From: Candidatus Omnitrophota bacterium | Lineage (GTDB): Bacteria; Omnitrophota; Gorgyraeia; JABMRN01; RBG-13-46-9 | DNA length: 16,598 nucleotides | Reading direction: 5' to 3' | NCBI GenBank assembly: GCA_013203315.1 | Contig: JABMQJ010000028.1 | Location: forward strand, 1 to 16,598 | In this document: positions 1 to 16,598 of the stretch, piece after piece | How the letters are laid out: the number at the start of each line of letters is the position of its first letter | How positions within the stretch are numbered: the first letter of the stretch is position 1 | Notes under the pieces: generated by a model | The model's input: only the letters and a program-made list of their open reading frames with translations | What the model was told of the DNA's origin: nothing | Databases searched by the model: none | Translations under genes and position numbers: made by a program

Positions 1-470
1 CAGGCCCAAGGCCCATAACCCCTGGCATAGGCGAGGGAGGAAGACATCCGATAACCCCTGGCATAGGCGAGGGAGGAAGGCATCCGAGACCAAAGCCAAG
101 GCCAATAGACCCGGTAGTCTTAAAATACGCCCCAGGTCCAATACCGAAGCCGATAGATCCACCAATGGTACTGAAATACGCCCCAGGCCCAATACCGAAG
201 CCGATAAAACCACCGATTGCCCTGAAATACGCCCCAGGCCCAATACCGGGGAACACGGTAAGCGTTACAATGAAAGTGACAAAAACCAATGACGAAACCG
301 TGAATAAGCTTGTACTGCGGAAAATAGCAGAATTACGAAACAAAATACGCGAAGCCTTTAACGGACCAACGGAAAAAATGGGAAGAAACATAAATGTATC
401 AGTGAGTAAAGGCCCGGAATTAAAAAAAGTAACGTTAATGGTAGGCGAAGACATTAGCAATCCCAAGTAA
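1..470 (+). CDS. Proline-rich tandem-repeat protein, 5'-truncated at the window edge; C-terminal ~75 aa resemble a TonB/TolA-type ββαβ domain. The ORF-track start at 165 is an internal Met.
   Basis: The frame of the tracked ORF 165..470 is open with no stop from nt 3 to 470. Translation reads GPRPITPGIGEGGRHPITPGIGEGGRHPRPKPRPIDPVVLKYAPGPIPKPIDPPMVLKYAPGPIPKPIKPPIALKYAPGPIPGNTVSVTMKV... Repeat periods are 36 and 51 nt, both multiples of 3. Differences between copies are mostly synonymous (tta/ctg Leu, ggt/ggc, cca/ccg, aga/agg). The ATG at 165 corresponds to ATT (Ile) in the next repeat copy. The tail GNTVSVTMKVTKTNDETVNKLVL-RKIAELRNKIREAF-GRNINVSVSKG has β-β-α-β topology like TonB_C, preceded by a PIPKPIKPP rigid linker. 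The TonB call is by eye only. Confidence 0.55.
   Translation, partial: GPRPITPGIGEGGRHPITPGIGEGGRHPRPKPRPIDPVVLKYAPGPIPKPIDPPMVLKYAPGPIPKPIKPPIALKYAPGPIPGNTVSVTMKVTKTNDETVNKLVLRKIAELRNKIREAFNGPTEKMGRNINVSVSKGPELKKVTLMVGEDISNPK
15..86 (+). repeat. Two perfect-phase 36-nt tandem coding repeats (12 aa, ITPGIGEGGRHP) differing by one synonymous a/g
   Basis: ataacccctggcataggcgagggaggaag[a/g]catccg at 15-50 and 51-86. Confidence 0.8.
120..254 (+). repeat. About 2.7 copies of a 51-nt tandem coding repeat (17 aa, [V/A]LKYAPGPIPKPI[D/K]PP[M/I])
   Basis: Units at 120-170, 171-221 and 222-~254; motif aaatacgccccagg[t/c]ccaataccgaagccgata. Confidence 0.8.
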
Positions 471-493
471 AAAAGGGATAAATAACGTAATTA

Positions 494-533
494 AAGGGTA
501 TCTTCTTCAAATAAGGAGATACCCTTTTCTTTT
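494..533 (+). terminator. Rho-independent terminator after the Pro-rich protein gene
   Basis: aagggtatct(tctt)/(aagg)agataccctt stem of 10-14 bp with G·U, loop caaat, then ttttctttt. Confidence 0.8.
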
Positions 534-538
534 AATCT

Positions 539-567
539 TTGCCTATTTTAAATAAATAATGTATACT
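539..567 (+). promoter_or_regulatory. Sigma70-like promoter for the rSAM operon
   Basis: -35 TTGCCT (539-544), 17-nt spacer, -10 TATACT (562-567); GGAGG RBS at 585-589 lies 7 nt before ATG 597. Confidence 0.55.
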
Positions 568-596
568 TAACTCAAAGCATAAATGGAGGAACTAAA

Positions 597-1730
597 ATGG
601 ATCCAAGAGAAGCGGAAAGAAGAAAATGGGTGAAAACATTAAAACCAGAAACCATAGTGTGGGAAATAACCTTAGCCTGCAATATGAAATGTATACATTG
701 CGGTTCAAGCGCAGGCCCTTTAAGAAAACGGCCGGATGAATTAAGCACGAAAGAAGCTATAGGCCTTATCAGACAATTAAAAGAAATAGGAACCGAAAGA
801 ATTGTCCTGTCAGGAGGAGAACCTTTCTTAAGAAAAGATTGGGAAGTTTTGGCGAAGGAAGTAGCCGCGTTAGATATGATACCGTCTTTTATTAGTAATG
901 GTTTTTTGTTAGATGAAAAAAAAGCAGAAAAAATAAAGGCTTTGAACAGACCGGATGCCCATGTGGGCGTGAGCGTTGACGGAGACGAGAAAACCCACGA
1001 TTATATAAGACAGACCAAAGGCTCTTTTAAAAAAGCGACCAGCGCACTCGAAATACTGAAAGAGAAGGGAATCTTTGCTTCAGCCATAACGCAGGTGAAT
1101 ATGCTTAATTTCAAGTTATTGCCGAAGATAAGAGACCATGTATTTAAACGTGGAATTTATGTTTGGCAGATTCAGTTGGCAACGCCATGGGGAAGGTTAG
1201 CCAAAAATCCCAAACTTCTCTTGACACCAAAGAATTACCTAAAATTAGTAAAATTTATAGCAGAACAACGGAAAATATTCGGAGAGAAAATTGTAGGCGC
1301 TGACGACATCGGATACTATACAGAATTAGAACAACAAATAAGGCCTCAGAAAGAATGGGGCGGATGTCACGCCGGGTTAAGGGCGCTTGGCTTAACAAGC
1401 AATGGTAATGTAACCGGCTGTCTGTCGCTGCAGGAACCGCAGTTTATCGAAGGCAATATCCGCAAGCGAAAATTAAAAGATATCTGGTATGACCCTAACC
1501 TTTTCTCCTATAATAGAAATTTTAAAGAGGAATGCATGGAAGGATTTTGCAAGGAGTGCCCCTACCGGCTGAAATGCCGCGGCGGATGCAAGAATACGGC
1601 ATATGCATTTACGGGTTCTCTCTATAATAATTGTTACTGCGTTTTTAGAGTCATGCGCGGCAAAAAAGCACCGTCGATGAAAAAGATGCTGGGGAATAGA
1701 ACGACCGGTGCCGGACAGTATCACCCATAG
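597..1730 (+). CDS. Radical SAM / SPASM-domain enzyme, anSME/QhpD-like architecture with no N-terminal RRE
   Basis: CNMKCIHC (CxxxCxxC, Cys28/32/35, nt 678-701). GGEPFL glycine-rich SAM motif. C-terminal Cys cluster WGGC...TGC...EEC-x4-C-x2-C-x5-C-x3-C...NNCYC, consistent with SPASM two-auxiliary-cluster domains. The CxxxCxxC lies only 28 aa from the N-terminus, so there is no room for an RRE. Confidence 0.85.
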   Translation: MDPREAERRKWVKTLKPETIVWEITLACNMKCIHCGSSAGPLRKRPDELSTKEAIGLIRQLKEIGTERIVLSGGEPFLRKDWEVLAKEVAALDMIPSFISNGFLLDEKKAEKIKALNRPDAHVGVSVDGDEKTHDYIRQTKGSFKKATSALEILKEKGIFASAITQVNMLNFKLLPKIRDHVFKRGIYVWQIQLATPWGRLAKNPKLLLTPKNYLKLVKFIAEQRKIFGEKIVGADDIGYYTELEQQIRPQKEWGGCHAGLRALGLTSNGNVTGCLSLQEPQFIEGNIRKRKLKDIWYDPNLFSYNRNFKEECMEGFCKECPYRLKCRGGCKNTAYAFTGSLYNNCYCVFRVMRGKKAPSMKKMLGNRTTGAGQYHP

Positions 1731-1739
1731 GAGGTAATA

Positions 1740-2693
1740 ATGGGGAAAATTACCATAGGCATTGTCGGCGCGGAAAATGAAGCGCACTCTGCCCATATGA
1801 AAAACATCCTTCAGGAAAAAGGAATAGATACACTAATTATCGATACACTCAAGTATCCCGAAAGCGTAACATTAAGCATTACAGACAATGATGTAATATA
1901 CAACGGAAAGTCCCTACGCAATATAAATGTCTTTTATATCAGGTCCCTATTCTATAGTTTACCGCCTTATGACCTGGAACAGAGGAGGCGTGAGACAGAG
2001 GTTGACCTTGACAATTGGTATGTAGAATATATGGCAGAAAGGGAAAGGCAGTCCCATCTTACCTCGTGGTTATGGATTGAGGCCGGAAAAGGAAAGCATA
2101 TCATAAACCCTGTCGATTCTTTCGATACCCATTATCTTAAGCCCTATCAAATATATCTGCTGAGAAAAAATGGTATTCCGATACCAAAAACGTTAGTAAC
2201 TAATGACGAAGAAAAACTAATAGAATTTGTAAAAAAAACAAAAAGATTAATATATAAACCGGTAGCAGGGGGTGCGAAATGTAAAGAGTTATTTAAAAAG
2301 GACCTAACCAGAGAAAGATTGGAGCGACTTCGAAACTCACCTGTTTTGTTTCAAGAGCTGATAGAGGGGGATAATATAAGAGTATATGTTATAAACAATA
2401 AAATAGTATCAAGCAATGTGATTAAATCGGATGCTTTGGATTATAGGGGATCAGAGAAAGAGATATTTCCAATTTCTTTACCCGATAAAGTAAAAAAGAG
2501 GTGTATTAAAGCGGTAAAGATATGTAAAATGAAATACAGCGGTATAGATTTGAGAAGAAAATCTTCAGGCGAGTACGTATTTTTAGAATGCAATCCATCC
2601 CCGATGTTTTTGGGGATGGTTGAGGCGGCAGGCGACCCGATAGACGAATATTTTGCCGATTACCTTATTAAATTAGCGAAAAGCAGGATATGA
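1740..2693 (+). CDS. ATP-grasp ligase, RimK / glutathione-synthetase-like
   Basis: Strong RBS taggaggtaataATG. Motifs IYKPVAGGAKCKEL, LFQELIEGDNIRVYVI, GIDLRRKSSGEYVFLECNPSPMF are typical of the RimK-like ATP-grasp fold. Starts 9 nt after the rSAM stop. Confidence 0.8.
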   Translation: MGKITIGIVGAENEAHSAHMKNILQEKGIDTLIIDTLKYPESVTLSITDNDVIYNGKSLRNINVFYIRSLFYSLPPYDLEQRRRETEVDLDNWYVEYMAERERQSHLTSWLWIEAGKGKHIINPVDSFDTHYLKPYQIYLLRKNGIPIPKTLVTNDEEKLIEFVKKTKRLIYKPVAGGAKCKELFKKDLTRERLERLRNSPVLFQELIEGDNIRVYVINNKIVSSNVIKSDALDYRGSEKEIFPISLPDKVKKRCIKAVKICKMKYSGIDLRRKSSGEYVFLECNPSPMFLGMVEAAGDPIDEYFADYLIKLAKSRI

Positions 2694-3649
2694 GTAACGC
2701 GGAATGCCAGGATTTTGCAGATAGGAAATTCCACAATATCTTCCATTTCGAATACGGCCTTCTGGACGATAGCACTTTCTGGATATCACCCGGCAATAAC
2801 ACCCTCTTGAGAATTGATAAATTCACATTGAATATATTACTGGATTTGAACACTGGAAAATCTATGTGCGAGGCGGCAAAAAAATATAATGTAGAGTTAA
2901 AAGAAGTAACGGATATTTATAATAGACTTGAGCAAAACGGATTTGTAGTAGCAGCAAACTTCGGAAAAATAAAACGTTCAAACCCAAAAGAAGACATAGA
3001 TATCGCCCCGTATATTTTGATTTTTTTAGCATTGATAATCGGACAACTTTTTTACTTCACTCATATGGCAAAGACAGTCCTGATGAATAAAACAATCGAA
3101 GGCATAGTAGTCGGCGCTATTGCCATAGCAGCTATTTTTTTTCACGAACTCGGCCATTATTTAGTCTCTTGGAAATATACAAAAGTAAAACCTAAAATGA
3201 AATTCGCTATTTTAAAAATATTTCCGGTAATCTATGTCGACACAAACCTCGCGTGGCGGCTTCCGAAGAACGAAAGGCTTCTTGTAAGTTTAAGCGGTGT
3301 GTTTTTTGATTTGATTATAAATACGATTGTGGTAATATTAGTATTGGGAAAAGGCTCTTTGGAATATTTCGTTACGCCATTTTTGTTGACCCAGTATATA
3401 AGGATTTCTATTTTAATTAACCCTGTTTTTAAGGGCGACGGATATTGGATATTGTCAGACCTGCTGGGTGCCGTAAATATGGAAAGGAAAGGTATTGAAG
3501 AATTAAAAAGGGGTAAAATAAACTTCTTTTCCCTGTACGGAGTTATATCTTTAATCTTTTCTATATTAGCTGCATTCGGCTTGATATGGTTTATATATAA
3601 TTTGGCAAGACCGTTTATCGTAAATTTTGTGTTACCGTTTTTTAGATAA
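2690..3649 (+). CDS. Polytopic membrane HExxH metalloprotease (S2P/M50-like) with an N-terminal cytoplasmic PqqD-like RRE domain
   Basis: Overlaps the ATP-grasp stop by ATGA. Residues ~27-88, FWISPGNNTLLRIDKFTLNILLDLNTGKSMCEAAKKYNVELKEVTDIYNRLEQNGFVV, match the PqqD/RRE pattern (LN..g..iw.ll.g..t..ei...l...y.v....v..D....l..L...g.v). HELGH sits in a TM helix (aa 152-156, nt 3143-3157). A second motif INPVFKGDG (aa 243-251) resembles the S2P NxxPxxxLDG zinc-ligand motif. At least 6 hydrophobic TM segments. Confidence 0.65.
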   Translation: MSNAECQDFADRKFHNIFHFEYGLLDDSTFWISPGNNTLLRIDKFTLNILLDLNTGKSMCEAAKKYNVELKEVTDIYNRLEQNGFVVAANFGKIKRSNPKEDIDIAPYILIFLALIIGQLFYFTHMAKTVLMNKTIEGIVVGAIAIAAIFFHELGHYLVSWKYTKVKPKMKFAILKIFPVIYVDTNLAWRLPKNERLLVSLSGVFFDLIINTIVVILVLGKGSLEYFVTPFLLTQYIRISILINPVFKGDGYWILSDLLGAVNMERKGIEELKRGKINFFSLYGVISLIFSILAAFGLIWFIYNLARPFIVNFVLPFFR

Positions 3650-3663
3650 AGAGGGAGGGTATT

Positions 3664-4437
3664 ATGGAGTTCATGAAATCATTAAATTTCTTGGGATTCG
3701 GCATTTTAATATTTATTGTATTTATTATCGCAGCCGCCATAAGGATAGTAAAGCAGTATGAAAGAGCAATTGTTTTTAGGCTCGGAAAGTTTATCTGTAC
3801 AAAAGGTCCGGGTTTAATCTTTATAATACCTATCATAGATAGGGCCCTAAAAGTAGACATACGAGTAAATTCTATAGACGTGCCAAGACAGGAAACTATA
3901 ACAAAAGATAATGTGTCGGTTATTGTCGATGCCGTAGTATACTACAAAGTAGAGAATCCGGAAAAGGCCATAATAGAAGTCAAGAATTCCATCGAGGCCA
4001 CATTTCTTATAGCACAGACGACCTTGAGAAGCGTAATAGGTCAGACAGAGCTCGATGGGCTTCTATCGCAAAGAGACGAAATCAATAAAAATTTGAGAGA
4101 AATTATCGACAAACATACCACTCCCTGGGGGATAAAGGTAATTACGGTGGAGATAAAAGAATTAGCTTTACCGGAAGAGATGAAGCGTGCCATGGCAAGG
4201 CAGGCAGAGTCTGAGAGAGAAAGAAGAGCAAAGATTATAAACGCCGAAGGCGAATACCAGGCCGCGGAAAAATTACGCCAGGCAGCAGAAATAATGAGCA
4301 AAGAGCCGATCACGGTGCAATTACGTTATCTTCAAACGCTTTCGGAGATTTCTGTCGACAAGAGCTCAACCATAATTTTTCCGGTCCCTATTGATTTAAT
4401 ATCTAATATTTTGAAAAAAGCGGACGAAAAAAAGTAG
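3664..4437 (+). CDS. SPFH / band-7 (stomatin/prohibitin-like) membrane scaffold protein
   Basis: Strong RBS agagggaggg. N-terminal TM helix FLGFGILIFIVFIIAAAI. Core SPFH signature RLGKF...GPGL.FIIP..D....VDIR....DVP.Q...TKDNV.V.VDAVVYYKV, coiled-coil Ala/Glu/Arg-rich C-terminus. Confidence 0.85.
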   Translation: MEFMKSLNFLGFGILIFIVFIIAAAIRIVKQYERAIVFRLGKFICTKGPGLIFIIPIIDRALKVDIRVNSIDVPRQETITKDNVSVIVDAVVYYKVENPEKAIIEVKNSIEATFLIAQTTLRSVIGQTELDGLLSQRDEINKNLREIIDKHTTPWGIKVITVEIKELALPEEMKRAMARQAESERERRAKIINAEGEYQAAEKLRQAAEIMSKEPITVQLRYLQTLSEISVDKSSTIIFPVPIDLISNILKKADEKK

Positions 4438-4466
4438 ACTAATACACGGCCAAATAATCTTCACCC

Positions 4467-4497
4467 AAAATGTCTACCCTTAAATGGTGGACATTTT
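4467..4497 (+). terminator. Hairpin, probably bidirectional terminator after the SPFH gene
   Basis: aaaatgtctacc / ggtggacatttt 12-bp stem with one G·U, 7-nt loop; the A-tract and U-tract form the stem base. Confidence 0.5.
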
Positions 4498-4596
4498 GCA
4501 ACTATCCATATCTGAGAGAGTTACAAAAGTAGTGGACAAAATGGACACTTCTTCGCCAAATACTTACGCGTTTGGCTTCGAAGTGCAGGCAAAATA

Positions 4597-4797
4597 TCAG
4601 TACTCTTGTTCGAATTTGTCCATTCCGTATTTGCAAGCCTTTTTGGCCGTTTTTGTGTTTATGTTCAAGCTTTTGGCTATCTTTTCATAGCGCATTCCAA
4701 GTAGTCGCAATTCTGTTGCTTTTTGGGCTAATCTTTGATATAAATGTATATATTGAACAAGTAATATCTTAATATGTGTGGTAATTTCGGCTAATGT
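4597..4797 (-). other. Open minus-strand frame encoding an HTH-like peptide, with no canonical start apart from an internal ATG (4695) or TTG (4710)
   Basis: Reverse-strand translation ...ILLVQYIHLYQRLAQKATELRLLGMRYEKIAKSLNINTKTAKKACKYGMDKFEQEY* has a helix-turn-helix pattern reminiscent of sigma70 region 4 / small transposase HTHs. No convincing RBS. Confidence 0.2.
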
Positions 4798-4836
4798 TCA
4801 AATTGGTTGCAGCCGAATCCGCCAACGTAAACAAAT

Positions 4837-6541
4837 TATGTCATACCTATCACTAGCCAGAAAATACAGACCCCAGAAGTTTGATGAAATCGTAGGCCAG
4901 GACCACATCGCCACCACGCTTAAAAACGCCGTTACCCTGGAAAGGGTTGCGCACGCCTATCTCTTTGCTGGGCCAAGAGGAGTCGGCAAGACCTCAACGG
5001 CGCGAATCTTGGCAAAAAGCTTAAACTGCGAAAAAGGCCCGACCCCGGCGCCCTGCGGCAAGTGCACATCATGCACTGAGATCGCCAAAAGCATAAGCAT
5101 GGACGTTATAGAAATAGACGGCGCCTCGAACAGGGGAATCGATGAAATAAGAAACTTAAAAGAAAACATAAAATTCGCCTCCATCCACGGAAAATTCAGG
5201 ATATATATTATCGACGAAGTTCACATGCTGACGCAGGAGGCGTTTAACGCGCTTTTAAAAACCTTAGAAGAGCCCCCGCCTCACGTAAAGTTTATTTTCG
5301 CGACAACACAGCCCCACAAGGTATTGCCTACGATCATTTCCAGGTGCCAGCGTTTCGACTTCAGGAAAATTTCAGCAGAAGACATTACAAAAAAAATAAA
5401 AGAGATCAGAAAAAAAGAAGATTTAAAATTAAACGATGACGCGACATTCCTGATTACAAAGGCAGCCGACGGAAGCATGCGTGACGCAGAAGTAATTCTC
5501 GACCAGCTTCTTTCGTTTACAAAAGGAAAAATTGAAGCAAACGACGTCACAAATGCCCTGGGTTTATTAGAAGGAGAGATACTCCTTGACATAGCAGAAG
5601 CTATTTTAAAAAACGAAAAAGAAAAGATTTTAAATCTTCTAAACGAACTCATAAACAGCGGAAAAGATCCTGTTTTCATAGCCTCAAGCATCATAGAGCA
5701 TTTCAGGAATCTTTTGGTGGCAAACGTAGCAAAGGATGATACAAAAGCCTACATGACGCTTTCCGAAGAGGATAATAACAAGCTAAAAACGCAAGGTAAG
5801 AAGTTTTCACTCGACGAGATTTTATACATTACGTACACGTTATCCGCCACGATAGAATTCATAAAGAAAACAAGCCTGGGGCGCATACCGCTTGAGATTT
5901 CGCTCATAAAATTAACCGAAAGAAAAAAACTTACCTCGATAAAAGAAATTTTAGAAAGGCTCTCGTCCTTCGAAAAAAAGATAGGAAGCGGCGAAGAAAT
6001 TCCGCAAGGGATAAGAGTTCAAGCTGCGTCACCTGAGATGATAATAGAAAAAGAAACTCCTCCCGTAGTGTCAAAAGCAGTGCCGGAGCCCGAACTTGCC
6101 GCGGAAAAAGATATACTACTTTTGCAGAAAATAAAAACCTCCTGGATTAATATTATTAATTTCATAAAACAAAAGAAAATGTCCGTAGCGACTTTTCTTT
6201 CCGACGGGAGGCTGCTTAACGTAAAAGACAGGACCCTCGCGATAGGCTTCGGAAAAAATAGCTCACTCCACAAAGAACAGATCGAGGCAAACACAAATAA
6301 AAAGTTTGTAGAAGAGGCTATCCGTAGCGTTGTGGGCGAGGACGTATCTTTAAGCGTTGAAAGCGTGGAAGACGAACCCGGGCAGGGAAATGAAATACCG
6401 GGTAACGAAAAAAACGCTTCGCAGGAAGAGGCTACAAGCGGCCGGACAAATAAAATAGATCCGATAGTAGAATCAGCCATCGGCATATTTGACGGAAGAA
6501 TCATAGATATAAGAAGAGCCAAAAAAGAGGGTACAGGATGA
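4837..6541 (+). CDS. dnaX: DNA polymerase III subunit gamma/tau
   Basis: MSYLSLARKYRPQKFDEIVGQ N-terminus. Walker A GPRGVGKTS. Zn module C-x8-CGKCTSC. DEVHML. SRCQRFDF sensor. I prefer the ATG at 4837 over the track's GTG at 4778 because the N-terminus aligns with canonical DnaX. Confidence 0.9.
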
Positions 6542-7137
6542 AGGGTTTGCCGGATTCAATGAAGGCAGTGATAGGCGAATTTAGTAAGATGCCGGGAATC
6601 GGCCCCAAATCAGCCCAGCGGCTTGCTTTTTCTATCCTGACACGGCCGGCCGAAGATGCCAAAAAGCTTTCAGAGGCGATAATAAAGCTTAAAGAAAGCG
6701 TAAAGTTTTGCAAAATTTGCAACAACCTAAGTGATGCGGAAATTTGCAGTATATGCGGCAATGAAGCAAGGGATAAAACGCTACTTTGCGTAGTAGAGAA
6801 GCCGAGCGACGTGATTTCCATAGAGAGAATGGGGGAATTTAACGGTTTGTACCACGTGTTATTGGGCTCACTTTCTCCGTTAGACGGAGTTGGGCCCGGG
6901 GATTTAAAAATAGACGAATTATTAAAGAGGGTTAGAAGAGAAAAAATCGAGGAAATCATAATCGCAACTGCCTCCAATACGGAAGGCGAGGCAACGGCCC
7001 TCTATCTTATAAAAGTATTAAAATCCCAGGGGGCCAAACTATACAGGATTGCCTACGGGGTACCTATGGGCGCTAATCTTGAATATACCGATCAAGCGAC
7101 TTTATATAAGGCATTCGAAGGAAAAAAGGAAGTTTGA
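6538..7137 (+). CDS. recR: Recombination protein RecR
   Basis: MPGIGPKSAQRLAF HhH motif. C4 zinc finger CKIC...CSIC. Toprim LCVVEKPSDV. Overlaps the dnaX stop by ATGA. Confidence 0.9.
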   Translation: MKGLPDSMKAVIGEFSKMPGIGPKSAQRLAFSILTRPAEDAKKLSEAIIKLKESVKFCKICNNLSDAEICSICGNEARDKTLLCVVEKPSDVISIERMGEFNGLYHVLLGSLSPLDGVGPGDLKIDELLKRVRREKIEEIIIATASNTEGEATALYLIKVLKSQGAKLYRIAYGVPMGANLEYTDQATLYKAFEGKKEV

Positions 7138-7138
7138 C

Positions 7139-7167
7139 TTGACACTGGGTCGAATATAGTGTAAATT
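7139..7167 (+). promoter_or_regulatory. Sigma70-like promoter
   Basis: Perfect TTGACA (7139-7144), 17-nt spacer, TAAATT (7162-7167); AT-rich tatataat follows; RBS aaggagg at 7200-7206. Confidence 0.5.
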
Positions 7168-7213
7168 TATATAATAGTTTAATATATATCAAGTAACATT
7201 AAGGAGGATGATA

Positions 7214-7999
7214 ATGAGTATAATAGAAGCTGTTAAAAAGGGTTTTACGATGAGCGGAAAGCTGCTCAACGTCGTAATCATATTTTTTATTCTTAACGTT
7301 GTCATGGGCCTTGTAAGCCTGCCATTCGCAAGTCCGGAAAACGTGGGAAATCCCGGTGTTGCGGCAATTTCATTTATCTTAAGCTTAGTGTTTTTTGCTA
7401 TTTTCATTTTCTTGCAGGGGGGTGCCCTGGGGCTCACAAGAGACCTCCTCAAAACAGGCGCCTGCAACATATCCAGTTTCGCAAGTTATGGAAAGAAATA
7501 TTATGTAAGAATTCTCGGACTTTTACTGCTTTACGTTTTGGTAGCAGTAGCACTCGTGCTGGTTCTCGGACTAGCCGGAAGCGGGATCCTGGCACTAGCC
7601 AATAACCTCATTACGAGAACTATCGTCGGAGCCATAGCAGGGATTGTCGCGATTGCAGCGATTGTTATACTTCTATTTCCTATTTATGCAATTGTTGCCG
7701 ATGATGCGAGCGTAATGCAGGCATTCAAAAAAGGCACGAAGCTTGGCAAAGAAAATTTCTGGAACATATTAGGGCTTTTCCTTGCACTGGTCGTTATCAG
7801 CGTTGTTATTTCGTTAGTAATCGGGTTCGTAATCGGGCTCATCACTGTCCCGTTGCCATTTGCGGTAACTCAGATAATAATAACCATCGTAAACGGTGCG
7901 GTACAATCTTATATTCCTATTGTCATGATGCTGGCTCTTATGGGTTGTTACTTGGGATTATCAAAAGGCCAAGGCGGCTCACAAACCGGCCCCGCATAG
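7214..7999 (+). CDS. Polytopic Gly/Ala/Val-rich integral membrane protein of unknown function
   Basis: About 6 long hydrophobic segments and a short polar N-terminus. Second ATG chosen because the SD aaggagg is 7 nt upstream. No catalytic motif recognised. Confidence 0.6.
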   Translation: MSIIEAVKKGFTMSGKLLNVVIIFFILNVVMGLVSLPFASPENVGNPGVAAISFILSLVFFAIFIFLQGGALGLTRDLLKTGACNISSFASYGKKYYVRILGLLLLYVLVAVALVLVLGLAGSGILALANNLITRTIVGAIAGIVAIAAIVILLFPIYAIVADDASVMQAFKKGTKLGKENFWNILGLFLALVVISVVISLVIGFVIGLITVPLPFAVTQIIITIVNGAVQSYIPIVMMLALMGCYLGLSKGQGGSQTGPA

Positions 8000-8027
8000 A
8001 CTTCTAAAAGTATAGAAATTCACTAGA

Positions 8028-8600
8028 ATGAAAGACATGCTAGAAATAAGGTGGCATGGCCGGGGCGGCCAGGGCGCTAAGACGGCGTCCCAGTTTTTGG
8101 CTGAATCGGCCTTAGAGCTCGGAAAATCTATCCAGGCATTCCCCGAATACGGCCCTGAGAGGGCCGGCGCTCCTATCCGCACATATACAAGAATAAGCGA
8201 CCACCCGATAAGCATACACTCACCGGTAACCACCCCTGACTTTGTCGTAGTAATAGACCCGACACTCTTAGAAAGTGTAAACGCCGCTGAAGGGTTGAGC
8301 GATAAAGGGGTTTTGGTTGTAAATACCACAGAGGACGTAAGTGCGATACGCCGGAAGGCTAATTTTACAAAGGGTAAAGTAGCCGTTTGCGACGCGACAA
8401 AAATTTCACTGGAGATTCTCGGGATCCCGATGCCGAATACGCCGATGCTGGGCGCGTTACTAAAGGTCGAGCAGATCGTGTCAATTGAGGCGCTGGCAAA
8501 CAACGTGCGAAAGAAATTCATTAAAAAGATCGGCGAAGAAAAAACAGAGGCAAACGTAAAAGCGATAAAGCGCGCCTTTGAAGAAACGAAAATAGGATAA
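8028..8600 (+). CDS. porG: Pyruvate:ferredoxin oxidoreductase gamma subunit
   Basis: IRWHGRGGQGAKTASQFLAE...PEYGPERAGAP..T.RISD is the canonical POR gamma signature. Confidence 0.85.
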   Translation: MKDMLEIRWHGRGGQGAKTASQFLAESALELGKSIQAFPEYGPERAGAPIRTYTRISDHPISIHSPVTTPDFVVVIDPTLLESVNAAEGLSDKGVLVVNTTEDVSAIRRKANFTKGKVAVCDATKISLEILGIPMPNTPMLGALLKVEQIVSIEALANNVRKKFIKKIGEEKTEANVKAIKRAFEETKIG

Positions 8601-8601
8601 G

Positions 8602-8880
8602 ATGGCGAAGAAAAAAGGCTGGAAAGAGATACCGATCGGCGGCCTGATAGACAAAGGTGGCACTGCCAAAGAATATAATACAGGTTCGTGGAGAACCTTT
8701 AAACCTATTGTAGATCAATCAAAATGTATAAACTGCCTTCAGTGCTGGATATATTGTCCTGATTCGTCCGTTATCGTAAAAGACGGAAAAATGGAAGGCT
8801 TTGACTACGAGCACTGCAAGGGTTGCGGCATATGTGCGAGCATTTGCCCCGTGAAATGCATAAAAATGGAAAGAGAATAG
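8602..8880 (+). CDS. porD: Pyruvate:ferredoxin oxidoreductase delta subunit (2x[4Fe-4S] ferredoxin)
   Basis: CINCLQCWIYCP and CKGCGICASICP cluster motifs; starts 1 nt after the porG stop. Confidence 0.85.
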   Translation: MAKKKGWKEIPIGGLIDKGGTAKEYNTGSWRTFKPIVDQSKCINCLQCWIYCPDSSVIVKDGKMEGFDYEHCKGCGICASICPVKCIKMERE

Positions 8881-8897
8881 TGGAGACGGAAGTAAAA

Positions 8898-10085
8898 ATG
8901 GCGACACAGAAGTTAGTACCGCTAACAGGGGACCAGGCCGTAGCCGAAGCGATGAGGCAGATCGAGCCGGACGTTGTCGCAGCTTACCCGATTACGCCGC
9001 AGACAGAAATCGTCATGAATTTTTCGCAGTTTGTAGCAGACGGCAAAGTGCAGACTGAATTAATACCCGTTGAATCCGAACACAGCGCCATGAGTGCCTG
9101 TGTCGGTTCAGCTGCAGCGGGCGCACGCACGATGACAGCAACCTCCGCGAACGGCCTTGCGCTTATGTGGGAAATCGTCTACATCGCCGCTTCGACACGT
9201 TTACCTATAGTTATGCCTGTTGTAAACAGAGCCCTCTCGGGCCCGATAAACATACACTGCGATCACTCCGACACCATGGGCGCCAGAGACTCCGGCTGGT
9301 TGCAGGTTTTTTCCGAGAGCGCGCAAGAAGCTTATGAGAACACCATTGTAGCGATTAGAATAGCTGAACACAAAAAGATTCTTTTACCGTGCATGGTATG
9401 CCAGGACGGATTTATAACAAGCCACGCTGTTGAAGGTATAGAATTATTCCCGGACGATAAAGTTAAAAAGTTCATAGGCGAGTATACAATAGAGCATAGT
9501 TTGCTTGATATGGATAATCCTGTGACTTACGGGCCCATAGACCTGCAGGACTTTTATTTTGAACACAAACGTCAACAGGCCGAGGCCATGAAGGGCGCGC
9601 TAACGATTATTCCGGAAGTTTTAGCGGAATTCAATAAAACATTCAACCGAAATCACGATCTACTCGAAGAATACAAGCTTAGCGATGCCGACATAGCGAT
9701 AGTTGCTACAAGTTCGACCGCAGGCACAGTAAAAGCAACGATAGATGAGCTCAGAAAACAGGGCATGAAAGTCGGTCTTCTAAAGCCAAGGTTCTTCAGG
9801 CCATTCCCGAAAGAAAGATTTGTAAAATCCCTTTCAAATATAAAAGCAATTGCAGTTTTGGATCGAAGCGACTCGTTCTCGGCGCAGGGCGGGCCATGGT
9901 TCAGTGAAATTAAAGCTGCGCTTTACGAATCGAAAAAACAACCCTTGATCACAAATTATATATTTGGGCTCGGCGGCCGCGATATTTTTCCCGAGAATAT
10001 AAAAAAGGTATATAGCGACTTAGAGGCGATTAAAAAAGCAGGTAAAGTTAAATCGCTGGTTAATTATTTAGGCGTAAGAGACTAA
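8898..10085 (+). CDS. porA: Pyruvate:ferredoxin oxidoreductase alpha subunit
   Basis: MATQKLVPLTGDQAVAEAMRQIEPDVVAAYPITPQTEIV N-terminus typical of PorA. ATG at 8898 has RBS ggagacgga. The track's 8823 start would overlap porD in another frame. Confidence 0.85.
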   Translation: MATQKLVPLTGDQAVAEAMRQIEPDVVAAYPITPQTEIVMNFSQFVADGKVQTELIPVESEHSAMSACVGSAAAGARTMTATSANGLALMWEIVYIAASTRLPIVMPVVNRALSGPINIHCDHSDTMGARDSGWLQVFSESAQEAYENTIVAIRIAEHKKILLPCMVCQDGFITSHAVEGIELFPDDKVKKFIGEYTIEHSLLDMDNPVTYGPIDLQDFYFEHKRQQAEAMKGALTIIPEVLAEFNKTFNRNHDLLEEYKLSDADIAIVATSSTAGTVKATIDELRKQGMKVGLLKPRFFRPFPKERFVKSLSNIKAIAVLDRSDSFSAQGGPWFSEIKAALYESKKQPLITNYIFGLGGRDIFPENIKKVYSDLEAIKKAGKVKSLVNYLGVRD

Positions 10086-11011
10086 TGGCTAATATAAAAG
10101 AATTATCAAAGATCCCGGAGCGCTTAACAGGCGGGCACAGGCTTTGTTCAGGTTGCGGGGCCTCTATTGCGGTAAGACAAGTTCTCATGGGGACAACCTC
10201 GCCTGTTGTCGTGGGCGCATCAACCGGCTGCCTTGAAGTCGCAACGACCATATATCCTTATACTGCCTGGAATACACCTTTCATCCATAACGCGTTTGAA
10301 AACGTAGCCGCGACGATAAGCGGCGTGGAAACAGCTTACCGCGCTTTGAAAAAACAGGGCAAAATTAAAAAAGACATTAAATTCGTTGCCTTTGGCGGCG
10401 ACGGCGGAACATATGATATCGGGCTTCAATCGCTATCAGGCGCGCTTGAAAGAGGCCATAACTTTGTATACGTCTGCTATGACAACGAAGGCTATATGAA
10501 CACCGGTATCCAGCGCTCGAGCGCGACACCGACAGGGGCCTCGACTACAACGGCCCCCGCGGGTAAAGAAAGCTACGGAAAACCGCAGTTAAGGAAAGAT
10601 CTTACCGCGATCGTAGCCGCGCATAACATACCTTACGTCGCCCAGGCGTGTATTTCGAACTGGAACGACCTTGTAGCGAAATCACAAAAGGCCTTTGCCG
10701 TAGACGGCCCGGCGTTCTTAAACGTCCTGGCACTCTGCCATAGAGGCTGGCGTTCTCCTGCGGCCGATGCGATCAAGATCTCCAAGTTAGCAATAGATAC
10801 AGGCTTCTGGCCGTTAATAGAATATGAAAACAAAAAGTGGCGCTTTACCTATAAACCGAAAGAAAGAAAGCCCGTCGTAGAATTTTTAAAAACACAGGGC
10901 CGATTCAAACACCTCTTCAAAGAGCAGAATAAGCCCGTCTTAGAGCAAATCCAAAGAGACATCGATGCCCACTGGACCTATCTCGAAAAGCTCGTCCAAG
11001 TCACATCCTAA
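10085..11011 (+). CDS. porB: Pyruvate:ferredoxin oxidoreductase beta subunit (TPP-binding)
   Basis: CSGCG...FGGDGGTYDIG TPP/Mg motif; start overlaps the porA stop (taATGg). Confidence 0.85.
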   Translation: MANIKELSKIPERLTGGHRLCSGCGASIAVRQVLMGTTSPVVVGASTGCLEVATTIYPYTAWNTPFIHNAFENVAATISGVETAYRALKKQGKIKKDIKFVAFGGDGGTYDIGLQSLSGALERGHNFVYVCYDNEGYMNTGIQRSSATPTGASTTTAPAGKESYGKPQLRKDLTAIVAAHNIPYVAQACISNWNDLVAKSQKAFAVDGPAFLNVLALCHRGWRSPAADAIKISKLAIDTGFWPLIEYENKKWRFTYKPKERKPVVEFLKTQGRFKHLFKEQNKPVLEQIQRDIDAHWTYLEKLVQVTS

Positions 11012-11032
11012 AGCGCGCTCTAAAACTTACCC

Positions 11033-11062
11033 TTTACAAGCCACAAGATAGCGATATATAAT
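11033..11062 (+). promoter_or_regulatory. Sigma70-like promoter for the MscS gene
   Basis: TTTACA, 18-nt spacer, perfect TATAAT (11057-11062); RBS aaggaga at 11087-11093. Confidence 0.5.
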
Positions 11063-11100
11063 ATAACAGTCGTATAGCTCAAAAATAAGGAGAACAAACT

Positions 11101-12156
11101 ATGTTTCAAGATATGCTAGAGAACGTATTTTTAGGAAATCGTGTTTTGGACTATTTAATATGCTTAGGGGTATTCCTGGGATGCTTTATAGTCATTCAAA
11201 TCATACGGTTAGTTGTTATAAAACGCCTCAAGAAATGGGCGGAAAAAACCACTACCACTATCGACGATCTTGTAATTCGCATCATCCAGAAGATCATTGT
11301 TCCGATAGCGTATATGGGTGTTTTATATGTAAGCGTTAATACCTTGACCCTCGATTCCATGGCAGAAAAAGCCGTAAATATAATAGCTACGGCCTTTCTT
11401 ACAGTGTTTTCAGCTCGCCTGGCTATCATCCTGACAACCGAAGGCTTTGCCATGTATTTGGCGAAAAAAGGAAAGACTGCATCCCTGGAAAGAAGCTTGA
11501 AAGGCATCACGGGCATATTAAAGATAATCATATGGGGCCTGGCGGTTACTTTCTTTCTGGATAATCTTGGATTTAAAATATCAGCAGTTATAGCGGGGCT
11601 CGGCATAGGCGGCGTGGCAGTAGCATTAGCAGCGCAAGCTGTCCTGGGGGACCTATTCAGTTACTTTGCGATAGTATTTGACCGCCCGTTTGAAATAGGG
11701 GATTTCATAATAATAGGGGACTACCTGGGAGTCATAGAGCACATAGGAATAAAAACAACACGTATAAGAAGCCTCGGCGGGGAACAGCTTATCTTTTCCA
11801 ACACGGACCTTACAAATTCAAGGGTACGTAACTATAAAAGAATGCAAAAAAGAAGGGTTGTTTTTAAGCTCGGCGTTACATATCAAACCCCGCTCGCTAA
11901 GTTAAAAGCCATTCCCGGCATGATCGAAAAAATAATAAAAAACGTTAAAGATACCGTATTCGACCGCGCACACTTTTCTACATACGGCGATTTTAATCTT
12001 GTGATCGAAGTCGTTTATTACGTTTTAAGCTCGGATTATAATAAATACATGGACACCCAGCAACAGATCAATTTTGCCATAAAAGAAGAGTTTGAAAAAG
12101 AAAAAATCGAATTCGCATATCCTACTCAAACGTTATACATGGATAAAGCCGCCTAA
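11101..12156 (+). CDS. Small-conductance mechanosensitive channel, MscS family
   Basis: Pore-helix GLGIGGVAVALAAQ followed by the β-domain FEIGDFIIIGDYLGVIEHIGIKTTRIRSLGGEQLIFSNTDL. Confidence 0.9.
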   Translation: MFQDMLENVFLGNRVLDYLICLGVFLGCFIVIQIIRLVVIKRLKKWAEKTTTTIDDLVIRIIQKIIVPIAYMGVLYVSVNTLTLDSMAEKAVNIIATAFLTVFSARLAIILTTEGFAMYLAKKGKTASLERSLKGITGILKIIIWGLAVTFFLDNLGFKISAVIAGLGIGGVAVALAAQAVLGDLFSYFAIVFDRPFEIGDFIIIGDYLGVIEHIGIKTTRIRSLGGEQLIFSNTDLTNSRVRNYKRMQKRRVVFKLGVTYQTPLAKLKAIPGMIEKIIKNVKDTVFDRAHFSTYGDFNLVIEVVYYVLSSDYNKYMDTQQQINFAIKEEFEKEKIEFAYPTQTLYMDKAA

Positions 12157-12161
12157 GAGAA

Positions 12162-13094
12162 ATGAAAATTTTCATAACAGGGGCAACCGGTTTTATCGGG
12201 GGACATTTTGCAAGGCGGATGGCCGGTAACGGCCACGAGGTAATCTGCGGCGGACGATCACCCGCAAAACTAAACTCTCTTCCCAAGGAATATAATCCTG
12301 TCCGCATATACCTGGAGCACAAAGAAACGATCTCCCGCGTATTAAAAAAAGAGCATCCGGACATCGTTTGCCACGCCGCCGCGTTAGTCGAAAGTAACTC
12401 CCTCGAGAACCTCCGACGGGTAAATGTAGACGGTACAAAGAATGTCCTGGACGCCTGCCTTGCATTTGGCATAAAGAAAGTAATATACGTAAGCTCTGTA
12501 GCCGTAATAAGCGGCAATAAAGAAGTTCCTCTAACAGATGATTTACCCTACAAAGCCACAAACGCATACGGCCAGTCCAAAGCGGAAGCTGAAAAAGTAG
12601 CTATTGCCTATAGAAAAAAAGGCCTAAAAATAGCAATTTTAAGGCCGTGCATAGTTTATGGCGAAGATGAGCCGCACGCGCTACATATTTTAATAAAATG
12701 GCTAAAACAGAGAACGCTTCCTATTTTCGGCGAAGGGGACAATAAACTTCAGCTTGTTTCCGTGGAGAATGTGGTAGATGTAATGGCTCTTTGTCTTTCA
12801 AGAGAAGAGGCATACGAGGGAACGTATCTTATCGCTGATAAAGAAATGTTGAGCGTAAAAGAGCTATTTTATTGTATTACCCGGGCAATAGGGGCCAAGA
12901 GCCCTATTCATGTTCCTCGGATATTTGTAGAGCTTTTTGTGAAGTTACCCGTAATAGGTAGAAGGGCATCTTTTTTCCTAAAAGATAGAACCTATAGTAT
13001 CGGTCGAATTAAAGAAAAACTCGGATACGTTCCGCGCGTTTCTACTTGCGATGGGATTAAAAAAGCAGTATTATCATATGGGAAAGGCAGGTAA
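12162..13094 (+). CDS. NAD-dependent epimerase/dehydratase (extended SDR)
   Basis: IFITGATGFIGGHF Rossmann motif and YGQSKAEAE catalytic YxxxK. Confidence 0.8.
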   Translation: MKIFITGATGFIGGHFARRMAGNGHEVICGGRSPAKLNSLPKEYNPVRIYLEHKETISRVLKKEHPDIVCHAAALVESNSLENLRRVNVDGTKNVLDACLAFGIKKVIYVSSVAVISGNKEVPLTDDLPYKATNAYGQSKAEAEKVAIAYRKKGLKIAILRPCIVYGEDEPHALHILIKWLKQRTLPIFGEGDNKLQLVSVENVVDVMALCLSREEAYEGTYLIADKEMLSVKELFYCITRAIGAKSPIHVPRIFVELFVKLPVIGRRASFFLKDRTYSIGRIKEKLGYVPRVSTCDGIKKAVLSYGKGR

Positions 13095-13097
13095 CTC

Positions 13098-13571
13098 ATG
13101 GCAAAGGTATTAATTACATATTATTCAAGTTCCGGCAACACCAAGGCGATGGCTCAGAAAATAGAAGCGACAATAAAAAAAGAAGGCGTCGAAACCGTCT
13201 TAAAAAAAGTAGAAGACGTTGATGCGGGTAATCTCATATCTTACGACGGCATCGTTATAGGTTCACCTACCTACTACGGCACCATGGCCTGGCAGGTGAA
13301 GAAATTACTCGACGAGAGCATATGCCATCACGGCAGCTTAAAAGGTAAGGTAGGTGGCGCCTTCTCCTCCGCGGCAAACGTAGGCGGCGGCAACGAAACC
13401 ACTATAAATGATATACTAAACGCGCTTCTCATCCACGGCATGATTATACAGGGTGAGCCAAAAGGCGACCACTACGGGCCCGTTGCGATAGGTGCGCCTG
13501 ATAAGCGTTCTCTAGACTGCTGCGAGCGTCTCGGTAAAAACATAGCAGACCTTGTAAAGAAAGTATCATAA
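13098..13571 (+). CDS. Flavodoxin-fold FMN protein (WrbA/NAD(P)H:quinone oxidoreductase-like)
   Basis: YYSSSGNTKAMA phosphate-binding loop, GSPTYYGTMAWQVK, GGAFSS...GGGNETT. Confidence 0.75.
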   Translation: MAKVLITYYSSSGNTKAMAQKIEATIKKEGVETVLKKVEDVDAGNLISYDGIVIGSPTYYGTMAWQVKKLLDESICHHGSLKGKVGGAFSSAANVGGGNETTINDILNALLIHGMIIQGEPKGDHYGPVAIGAPDKRSLDCCERLGKNIADLVKKVS

Positions 13572-13574
13572 TAC

Positions 13575-15500: not shown

Positions 15501-15505
15501 AGAGG

Positions 15506-16252
15506 TTAGAAGAAAGCGAGCTTTATCGCCATGGCGATTATCGCTACGACAAGTATCGCGCGTATCCACCTGTCACCCTTGGCGATCGCAAAATTACTTC
15601 CAAAATAAGCACCTATTGCGTTACCGGTGGCGAGGGCAAGGCCCATCGGAAGATTGATTTTCCCGTTCACTATAAAAATCGTAAGTGAAAAAATCATGTA
15701 AATAAGGACGACAAATACCTTTAAGGCGTTGATCCTGACCAGCGACAGCCCCGTCATGAGAGATAATGTCGCGATAATAATAAATCCTACACCCGCCTGC
15801 ACAAATCCCCCGTAAATCCCTATGAAGAAAAACGCTATCATGGCGAGGATTCTTTTCTTCAGGCCTACATTCTCGAAAGCCTTCTCTATTTTACTTCTTG
15901 GATTTATAATAATTACAGCGAGCATAACCATCATTGCGAAGGATAGGATGAGCTTAAACGTCCTGTCCGGCAGAGATATGACGATGCTTGACCCGATTGC
16001 AGCGCCTATCAGGGCGGGTATGGCAAGCTCCAGGCCGAATTTCCAGTCGAATATGCCTTTTTTCTTGAAGTTTGTTGTAGCAGAAATTGCCCCGAATAAT
16101 ATAGCGAGCCTGTTAGTGCCATTAGCGACAGCCGAAGGCAGGCCCAAGAAGATCAGCATCGGCAGCGTAAGAAGTGACCCCCCACCGGCGTTTGTGTTAA
16201 TAAACCCCGTCACTACTCCGACGACTAATATTAACAGTAGTTTAGGTAGCAT
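15506..16252 (-). CDS. TauE/SafE-family (DUF81) anion exporter membrane protein
   Basis: Two-repeat 4+4 TM architecture with GxxxG-rich helices. MLPKLLLILVVGVVTGFINTNAGGGSLLTLPMLIFLGLP is typical of the family. RBS aagga lies 9 nt before the ATG. Confidence 0.8.
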   Translation of the reverse strand: MLPKLLLILVVGVVTGFINTNAGGGSLLTLPMLIFLGLPSAVANGTNRLAILFGAISATTNFKKKGIFDWKFGLELAIPALIGAAIGSSIVISLPDRTFKLILSFAMMVMLAVIIINPRSKIEKAFENVGLKKRILAMIAFFFIGIYGGFVQAGVGFIIIATLSLMTGLSLVRINALKVFVVLIYMIFSLTIFIVNGKINLPMGLALATGNAIGAYFGSNFAIAKGDRWIRAILVVAIIAMAIKLAFF

Positions 16253-16317
16253 GCTTTGTCCTTTTTGAAATTATAGCACTTAAAACAATAAATCCAAAGC
16301 GAAATCCGCAAAATGCG

Positions 16318-16346
16318 TTGAAAAATACGCCTTCTTATGGTAGACT
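16318..16346 (+). promoter_or_regulatory. Candidate promoter for tRNA-Asn
   Basis: TTGAAA, 17-nt spacer, TAGACT; the tRNA 5' end is 23 nt downstream. Confidence 0.4.
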
Positions 16347-16369
16347 TTACCACACAGTTCTTTAAATAT

Positions 16370-16445
16370 TCCCCGGTAGCTCAGTTGGTAGAGCGGATGG
16401 CTGTTAACCATTAGGTCGTTGGTTCGAGTCCAACCCGGGGAGCCA
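16370..16445 (+). tRNA. tRNA-Asn (anticodon GTT), CCA encoded
   Basis: Acceptor stem TCCCCGG/CCGGGGA. D-arm GCTCAGTTGGTAGAGC. Anticodon arm GATGG-CTGTTAA-CCATT. T-arm GTTGG-TTCGAGT-CCAAC. Discriminator G plus CCA. Confidence 0.9.
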
Positions 16446-16483
16446 ATTTAATAGCTCGAACACAAGTTCGAGATAGAAACTAA

Positions 16484-16517
16484 GGCCCAATTGCAGAAAT
16501 GTAACTGGGCCTTTTCT
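16484..16517 (+). terminator. Possible rho-independent terminator after the tRNA
   Basis: ggccca ... tgggcc 6-bp GC stem with a long loop, followed by ttttct. A separate 7-bp hairpin ctcgaac-acaa-gttcgag lies at 16455-16472. Confidence 0.4.
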
Positions 16518-16598
16518 ATGTCTTGTAAAGTCAAAGAGTTAGAGCGATATTTTAAACCTCGTCATTGCGAGGAGCGCCGAAGGCGCGACGAAGCAATC

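Follow-up and report, generated by a model that had tools for sequence, protein, structure and literature searches.

In a Candidatus Omnitrophica/Omnitrophota metagenome-assembled genome (GenBank assembly GCA_013203315.1, contig JABMQJ010000028.1), a gene for an ATP-grasp enzyme is located between a gene encoding a radical S-adenosylmethionine enzyme with a SPASM domain (rSAM) and a gene encoding a membrane HExxH metalloprotease. The whole stretch analyzed (positions 1 to 16,598 of the contig; hereafter, the window) opens inside an open reading frame (ORF) that resembles a peptide precursor, and the order precursor, hairpin, rSAM, ATP-grasp, protease and SPFH protein is a conserved cassette order (Table 1). 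The remainder of the window consists of housekeeping genes. A first-pass annotation of this DNA had described the ATP-grasp enzyme as RimK-like and as translationally coupled within an rSAM operon, had left two functions for it, namely, the formation of macrocyclic links in a peptide (as in graspetides) or the addition of amino acids, and had predicted a doubly modified product; the precursor, the protease and the SPFH partner are cassette parts beyond those it identified.

Table 1. Features of the cassette at the 5′ end of the window.
Feature	Position (nt)	Strand	Description
Precursor gene, 3′ part	3–470	+	155 codons plus stop; ORF extends past the window start
Tandem core repeats	15–77	+	Two 36-nt repeats, ITPGIGEGG at nt 15–41 and 51–77
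(V/A)LKYAPGP, three copies	117–242	+	nt 117–140, 168–191 and 219–242; putative rSAM target motif
Conserved precursor segment VLRKIAELRNKIRE	312–353	+	Invariant in four homologues
C-terminal core VTLMVGED	429–452	+	VTxxxxED type; V-T-L-x-x-G-E-D invariant in homologues
Stem-loop	493–527	+	15 bp, then T-run; between precursor and enzyme genes; terminator/attenuator-like, putative role
rSAM/SPASM gene, "type A"	597–1730	+	Pfam Radical_SAM 87 bits, SPASM 33.5 bits; CxxxCxxC at aa 28–35
ATP-grasp gene	1740–2693	+	ATG at 1740, TGA at 2691–2693; 317 aa; predicted graspetide synthetase of the PsnB/plesiocin type
Membrane protease gene	2690–3649	+	Polytopic HExxH metalloprotease, site-2-protease-like; RRE-like N-terminal domain; putative leader peptidase
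SPFH protein gene	3664–4437	+	SPFH/Band 7 (stomatin/HflK-like) membrane protein; Pfam Band_7, 138 bits

The coordinates, Pfam domains and spacing agreed with an ATP-grasp ORF lying beside an rSAM/SPASM gene, and the operon organization around it was thereby confirmed. The stop codon of the rSAM gene (TAG) is followed by a 9-nt spacer, GAGGTAATA, before the ATG of the ATP-grasp gene, and a GGAGG sequence at 1729–1733 includes the final two bases of that stop codon. The junction thus shows close operon spacing, and the two genes do not overlap; from this spacing we infer translational coupling of the rSAM and ATP-grasp genes, so that the close arrangement claimed earlier was observed and the coupling itself is a deduction from it. 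At the other end, the ATP-grasp stop codon and the protease start codon share the sequence ATGA (2690–2693). An identical ATP-grasp protein was present on 8 contigs, 204 homologues were detected at E <= 1e-3 (best range, 1e-209 to 1e-47), and 141 ATP-grasp loci were confirmed among species-representative genomes, indicating that the ORF is real beyond chance.

At the level of domains, the enzyme matched the RimK-like ATP-grasp family of Pfam (PF08443; 46 bits, cut-off 21) as well as ATP-grasp_3 (38 bits). Its top relative in the PDB was PsnB (7DRM; E 5.3e-54, 187 bits, ~35% identity), the macrocyclase for the group 2 graspetide plesiocin of Plesiocystis pacifica, and the alignment covered the full length of the protein (residues 5–310). 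The following ranks were occupied by an MvdD-like enzyme, MdnB, MdnC, AMdnB and CdnC, all five of which are graspetide macrocyclases, and LysX (3.5e-5) and an alpha-L-Glu ligase (5e-4) were marginal matches. In the PsnB study, Arg213, Arg101 and Arg72 were reported to contact the Glu and Gly residues of the core (bioRxiv 10.1101/2021.03.09.434688); these residues correspond to R214, R101 and R68 in the window enzyme, Arg101 being treated here as a group 2a-specific core-binding residue. The D(F/W)R loop of PsnB corresponds to DYR (234–236), and the leader pocket of PsnB (Tyr171, Ile193, Leu196, Val201 and Phe203) corresponds to Y172, L194, L197, V202 and F204; R193 likewise matches a residue of this pocket, which holds the Phe of the leader sequence LFIEDL. 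The residues contacting the core and the leader were invariant or nearly so among 26 ATP-grasp homologues, and K173, D270, E283 and N285 were invariant in the family alignment.

Hidden Markov models for graspetide enzymes were compared with those for RimK and CofF, as the first-pass annotation had proposed. The best NCBIfam model was the graspetide maturase TIGR04187 (91 bits, cut-off 350), followed among the graspetide models by TIGR04185 (80 bits, cut-off 425) and TIGR04184 (61 bits, cut-off 475), and NCBIfam contains no model built for the plesiocin group. Because no NCBIfam graspetide model reached its cut-off, the placement of the enzyme rests on its similarity to PsnB together with its context. 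It could be argued instead that the protein is a ligase of the RimK/MptN/CofF type, which would extend a peptide or a cofactor with amino acids (e.g., a poly-Glu tail), considering that the score for the Pfam RimK domain exceeds its cut-off and that the scores for MptN (87.6 bits) and for the RimK family TIGR00768 (rimK_fam, 71.5 bits) come near the best graspetide score. These two scores are nevertheless far under their own cut-offs (350 and 143.4 bits, respectively), as are those for the S6-Glu ligase PRK10446 (19.3 vs 331 bits) and CofF (36.5 vs 300 bits), and the NCBIfam models for LysX and glutathione synthase were also below cut-off. Six graspetide macrocyclases head the PDB ranking, in which amino-acid ligases are marginal; the residues specific to leader and core binding in PsnB are retained; plesiocin-type precursors adjoin the ATP-grasp gene across phyla; and no S6, methanopterin or F420 (cofactor pathway) genes were found near the ATP-grasp gene in the window. 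An amino-acid ligase is, in our estimate, very improbable. The designation "RimK-like" accordingly holds for the Pfam domain and fails for the RimK and S6-Glu ligase families. Of the two functions left by the first-pass annotation, the sequence data indicate that the enzyme is a cross-linking graspetide synthetase of the plesiocin type and not an amino-acid adder.

The precursor ORF, which had no Pfam match, combines T-x4-E cores and KYAP motifs with a conserved C-terminal region. Among 80 species-representative genome loci, ~55 have the ATP-grasp gene next to an ORF with an LFIxDL/LFIExLE leader and 1–20 TTxAxGEEG repeats, and the loci with such a plesiocin-pattern precursor include that of Plesiocystis pacifica SIR-1, the plesiocin producer. 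Two full-length homologues of the window ORF, P0121 and P0122 (55–59% identity), begin with MRKKKKRLFIESLEQRRSTSPL, continue after the leader with VLKYGPGP motifs alternating with MTIWVGEDG or TTLSLGEEG cores, and have the C-terminal 65 aa in common with the window ORF; the rSAM encoded 3′ of P0122 is 91% identical to the window rSAM. This homology identifies the window ORF as the 3′ part of a plesiocin-type precursor. The leader itself was seen in P0121, P0122 and the precursors of loci L086 and L173, and the part of the ORF within the window, which lacks the leader region, shows the cores in a degenerate form with a single Thr and Glu. In ITPGIGEGG, Thr and Glu stand at i and i+5, which is the spacing of the inner, first-formed ring of plesiocin; the first ring of PsnA2 joins Thr32 and Glu37 (bioRxiv 10.1101/2021.03.09.434688). 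The same IT-x4-GEGG variant recurs independently in two loci that have the ATP-grasp gene only (L014 and L009). A VTxxxxED motif, the type found at the C-terminus of the window ORF, was reported to be modified in RcpA, a group 2 graspetide of Rheinheimera (PMC11626197).

The C-terminal 65 residues of the precursor (312–467; VLRKIAELRNKIRE...NGPTE.MGRN...LK.VTL.VGED..NPK) were nearly invariant among close homologues. This C-terminus is missing in the precursors of L173, L175, L176 and L089, from which the segment VLRKIAELRNKIRE is likewise absent. Every assembly with the cassette ended inside the precursor (window, 1–470; L001–L004, L006, L091 and L094), which contains tandem repeats of 36 nt and 51 nt. 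Because contigs break in these repeats, metagenome assemblies systematically cut short the precursors of this clade. A hairpin comparable to the stem-loop of the window lies 3′ of the L176 precursor. An Asp-Lys lactam formed by the ATP-grasp enzyme in DPxVLKY was considered and rejected, since the Asp lacks conservation and the motif is still present where a cassette has no ATP-grasp gene.

Comparison of related loci showed that the motifs of the precursor vary with the enzymes encoded beside it. ORFs with at least two [KR]Y[AG][PV] motifs were found in 3 of 88 graspetide loci, all of them with an rSAM of the type encoded in the window (type A, present in the window, L006, L008, L089, L091, L094 and L173). 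Precursors beside a type A rSAM carry repeated (V/I)LKY(A/G)P, to which L173 adds [MR]YAV motifs, and a KY-type motif was found in the precursors of L173, L175 and L176. A second rSAM (type B, present in L086, L021 and L089) is unrelated to type A (~25% identity); both types have been recruited within the clade that combines ATP-grasp, protease and SPFH genes, and rSAM-bearing loci are restricted to this clade. The precursors of type B loci contain Pro-rich hydrophobic linkers, PIPII(A/S) or PIPILAP, and no KY motif was found in those of L086 and L021. Where the rSAM gene is missing, the T/E cores are kept and the Tyr motifs are lost. Conversely, L175 and L176 have the type A rSAM, the protease and the SPFH protein without an ATP-grasp gene, and their precursors keep the leader and many KYG, KYA or IYS motifs and have no T/E cores. 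On the basis of these natural gain and loss variants, we assign the T/E cores to the ATP-grasp enzyme and the Tyr motif to the type A rSAM.

The type B rSAM genes occupy the slot before the ATP-grasp gene (L086, 6871–8004; L021, 5843–6970; L089, 916–2022), and their best NCBIfam model was TIGR04133 (209 bits, below cut-off). In L175 (5043–8976) and L176 (4481–7929), the plesiocin-type leader, type A rSAM, HExxH protease and SPFH protein are found together, and these loci look like a stand-alone Tyr-motif family of RiPPs (peptides made by the ribosome and then modified post-translationally) that reuses the graspetide leader. In L176 (4481–4861), the leader MKRKKLFVEELEVRKSTSPL... and three copies of VMKYAPPNP are in the same frame and are split by an in-frame TAA (4595–4597), which could mean that leader and core are encoded separately, that the gene is a pseudogene or that the assembly is in error.

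The same comparison bears on whether the rSAM and the ATP-grasp enzyme are merely neighbors with different substrates, in which case no doubly modified product would be made. Such an arrangement has a precedent in Rheinheimera, in which graspetide and spliceotide clusters lie side by side with separate precursors (PMC11626197), and L008 yielded no precursor and has a tectonin-like gene standing between its rSAM and ATP-grasp genes. Against it, single ORFs in P0121, P0122, L089 and L173 unite KY motifs and T/E cores with the plesiocin leader, and the window ORF, whose leader lies off the window, has the two kinds of motif together; motif content tracks enzyme content in the natural gene-loss variants; and the window cassette contains no second precursor-like ORF. 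We regard two independent neighbors as improbable. The co-variation of motifs and enzymes supports the doubly modified product that was predicted from the gene order, and we proceed with a single precursor as the likely shared substrate. As regards L008, the gene at 4239–5198, between the type A rSAM and ATP-grasp genes, encodes a Tectonin beta-propeller with seven KYLGxPHxW repeats; with its lipoprotein-like N-terminus, this repeat protein was rejected as a precursor, and no graspetide precursor was found on the 8.3-kb L008 contig.

The window rSAM, which has no N-terminal RiPP recognition element (RRE) domain, gave its best NCBIfam match with TIGR04103 (Nif11-class maturase 3; 260 bits, E 3.7e-77), for which the cut-off is 725 bits, and its second with TIGR03913 (230 bits). 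The gene for a Nostoc TIGR04103 protein that shares 40% identity with the window rSAM is located between a Nif11 precursor gene and a 71-aa ORF. The Nostoc precursor is of the LYG type, with the end ...SIALYGLPPELF and the core RGSIALYGLPPELF, and the arrangement of the three genes is, by analogy, the PlpA/X/Y splicease layout. An Agathobacter rSAM, also 40% identical, adjoins an upstream MYG peptide ending in ...GPVMYGTGVRM. Spliceases act on XYG motifs (PMC11414181), and KYG is present in the orthologous cassettes P0121, P0122 and L175; the window has three KYA motifs. Splicing at KY(G/A) by the type A rSAM is our favored reading, and we judge the case for it to be about evenly balanced. Three points speak against splicing, namely, the KYA motif in the window, the missing Y protein (no PlpY-like partner gene was found in the window cassette) and the sub-threshold TIGR04103 score. 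Moreover, rSAM/SPASM enzymes that are 40% identical often differ in chemistry.

These same points favor an rSAM that targets the Tyr motif without splicing, by epimerization, C–C or C–O cross-linking or another reaction, in which case the rest of the model would stand. The partner protease, in addition, resembles YydH/LiaK of the epipeptide system, the rSAM of which is an epimerase, and the nearest solved rSAM structures are SkfB and PqqE; the PDB contains no splicease, and these two matches do not decide between the chemistries. The nearest curated family and the 40% identical relatives adjoining LYG and MYG peptides point the other way, as do the canonical KYG motifs of orthologous cassettes and the lack of a conserved cross-link partner residue around the Tyr. 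We consider a non-splicing modification plausible without being probable, and retain splicing as the favored reading.

Metagenomic relatives of the rSAM with 40–46% identity lie beside peptides of 60–100 aa ending in ...GPxG(L/A)YY(T/A/G)x(V/I)SI(K/R)(D/E)F, which are encoded upstream of the rSAM gene in L104, L107, L109, L111, L123, L126, L138–L140, L151, L159 and L168. Many of these peptides carry a hydrophobic, possibly membrane-spanning stretch, and L111 contains three peptides and two tandem rSAMs; judging from their sequences, they appear to form an undescribed family of Tyr-motif peptides. On a plasmid of Azospirillum sp. B510 (L179, 2305–2760), "GDL motif" DUF1843 peptides beside a TIGR03913 rSAM contain the Tyr-Gly sites PYGP and AYGD. 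Homologues of the rSAM with identity of 57% or less (L095, L177 and L096–L172) showed no linkage to ATP-grasp genes, and the link to ATP-grasp thus does not generalize to the rSAM family as a whole.

The protease contains the motifs HELGH (aa 152) and NPVFKGDG (aa 244), which correspond to the HExxH and NPxxxxDG motifs of site-2 proteases (M50). It scored 18.5 bits with Pfam M50 (cut-off 27.2), gave weak NCBIfam matches with daptide_HExxH (54.5 bits, cut-off 300) and YydH/LiaK (52.8 bits, cut-off 225), and had no sequence match in the PDB. In an AlphaFold2 model made from the single sequence, residues 21–85 formed three strands and three helices (beta3-alpha3) with a predicted local distance difference test (pLDDT) score of 76–88, and only this N-terminal domain was used, since the transmembrane part had a pLDDT below 50. 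The top Foldseek matches of this domain in the PDB were RRE domains, those of TigE, LynD, TruD, TbiB1 (with leader) and MccB, at weak E-values of 0.008–0.08 (probability ~0.99). An R[KRQ]S[ST][ST] box follows LFIExLE-x in all 15 loci that have this protease and in which the leader is readable, whereas 13 HlyD-linked loci have a double-glycine leader, LFIEDLGQVTGG, instead. Leader type tracks protease type. The SPFH gene adjoins the protease gene in 22 loci. These observations suggest that the HExxH protease is the leader peptidase and the SPFH protein its membrane partner.

The five-gene order precursor-rSAM-ATP-grasp-protease-SPFH recurs in L086, L089, L091, L094 and L173 amid unrelated flanking genes; the cassette is flanked by dnaX-recR in the window, by pyrimidine genes in L086 and by RtcB and seryl-tRNA synthetase genes in L173. 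In the window, a 340-nt gap (4438–4777) without an Rfam match separates the SPFH gene from dnaX. A 68-aa ORF in this region (4484–4690), annotated as a gene in some assemblies, was rejected as a cassette part, because it had no family match and was not conserved in related cassettes. No Rfam element was found within the cassette, and the sole Rfam match in the window was a tRNA gene at 16370–16442 (72 bits). Promoter-like sites were as numerous as expected from shuffled sequence (14 found vs 14.0 expected), and terminator-like sites were fewer (3 vs 5.3).

Enzyme family, precursor identity, cassette conservation and the co-variation of motifs and enzymes were computed; the chemical steps, their order, leader cleavage and bioactivity in the following pathway are predictions based on them. 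The stem-loop after the precursor gene would probably allow the precursor transcript to exceed the enzyme transcripts. The repeat-rich precursor, the 3′ end of which is found at 3–470, would be bound by the ATP-grasp enzyme through the LFIExLE leader. In each T-x4-E(D/E/G) core, the Glu would be phosphorylated at the expense of ATP, and attack by the Thr hydroxyl would then close a side-chain ester ring, each ring lowering the mass by 18 Da. Three single rings are predicted from the precursor part within the window, two in the ITPGIGEGG repeats and one in VTLMVGED. Between the cores, the (V/A)LKYAPGP motifs would be modified at their Tyr by the rSAM. The protease is proposed to recognize the leader by means of an RRE-like domain and the R(K/Q)S(T/S)(S/T)PL box and then to remove it, with the SPFH protein as its membrane partner. 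The product is probably a protease inhibitor, and may be a multi-module one.

As a whole, a plesiocin-type graspetide synthetase in a five-gene, single-precursor hybrid cassette is in our view the probable explanation of this locus. Several points weigh against it. The leader of the window precursor lies off the window, and its presence is deduced from homologues of 55–59% identity; each core in the window is degenerate, having a single Thr and a single Glu (the inner pair only); the ATP-grasp enzyme is below the cut-off of all the graspetide models; the E-values for the RRE-like domain are weak and come from a single-sequence model; the co-variation is based on ~8 clusters, several of which are closely related; and no exporter gene was found in the cassette or the rest of the window. 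A more specific proposal, for which our confidence falls slightly short of even, is a graspetide-spliceotide hybrid. In this proposal, tyramine excision at KY(G/A/S) would generate alpha-keto-beta-lysine warheads, which would alternate with Thr-Glu ester loops to give a multi-headed inhibitor of serine and cysteine proteases; Ala or Ser following the Tyr would be accepted by the splicease, and the RRE-fused intramembrane protease with the SPFH protein would remove the leader.

The co-variation has the consequence that the target of each enzyme can be predicted before any experiment, given that motif content follows enzyme content across the gain and loss variants. If the rSAM is a splicease, the accepted site would widen from XYG to XY(A/S), a Lys-derived ketoamide would be supplied, and a natural fusion of two protease-inhibitor pharmacophores in a single peptide would be shown. 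The RRE-fused protease of the site-2 type, with its SPFH partner, is a candidate route of leader removal in graspetide clusters without peptidase-transporters. Secondary modification of graspetides has been described as understudied, and in the literature searched we found no graspetide tailored by an rSAM enzyme and no account of an operon that has both motif classes in one precursor and also encodes an SPFH protein and an RRE-fused protease of the site-2 type. The combination of ATP-grasp and rSAM had been called rare in the first-pass annotation, which was an overstatement: SPASM rSAM enzymes are among the four families commonest in ATP-grasp RiPP loci (PMC8939145), and every group 14 graspetide has one (PMC13097080). 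For the plesiocin group, peptidase-transporters are the partners that have been reported (PMC13097080). The co-occurrence itself is therefore known, and the unusual point is that an rSAM and an ATP-grasp enzyme are paired inside the plesiocin group, with one precursor as their probable substrate.

Among known systems, the Bacteroidota grasp-with-spasm clusters (TIGR04192/TIGR04193; group 14) likewise pair an ATP-grasp RiPP maturase with an rSAM/SPASM enzyme, but the window enzyme fails TIGR04192 (43.9 vs 230 bits), and the precursors, phyla and accessory genes differ. The epipeptide (YydFGHIJ/Lia) and daptide systems also pair a RiPP maturase with a membrane HExxH protease, which broadly belongs to one family with that of the cassette. 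The cassette protease, by contrast, scores far below their cut-offs (225 and 300 bits), carries an RRE-like domain at its N-terminus, is partnered by an SPFH protein and is not accompanied by an ABC transporter. Spliceotide systems (PlpA/PlpX/PlpY and the binary RhaA/RhaX) resemble it in having an rSAM/SPASM enzyme of the nearest curated family and a motif of the form X-Tyr-small residue; here, by contrast, the rSAM is below cut-off, the window motif is KYA, there is neither a Nif11/NHLP leader nor a Y protein, and the many repeated sites are in a Pro-rich context. Plesiocin (PsnA2/PsnB) shares the ATP-grasp family, the LFIExL leader (as seen in homologues of the window precursor) and a multi-core precursor with repeated Thr/Glu cores at i and i+5. 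It differs in that the ATP-grasp enzymes are ~35% identical, the window cores have the inner Thr-Glu pair only, the leader of the window clade ends in an RKSTSPL-type box rather than a double glycine, the HExxH protease and SPFH genes replace those for HlyD and the peptidase-transporter, and an rSAM is added. The multiple biosynthetic gene clusters of Rheinheimera (graspetide, rcp/rap; spliceotide, rcs/ras) likewise link a plesiocin-type ATP-grasp enzyme with a splicease-type rSAM and contain VTxxxxED cores, and their graspetide and spliceotide products both inhibit proteases (PMC11626197). In Rheinheimera the two motif types are on separate precursors in separate clusters, whereas in the cassette described here, in which splicing is a prediction, both are on one precursor in one operon.

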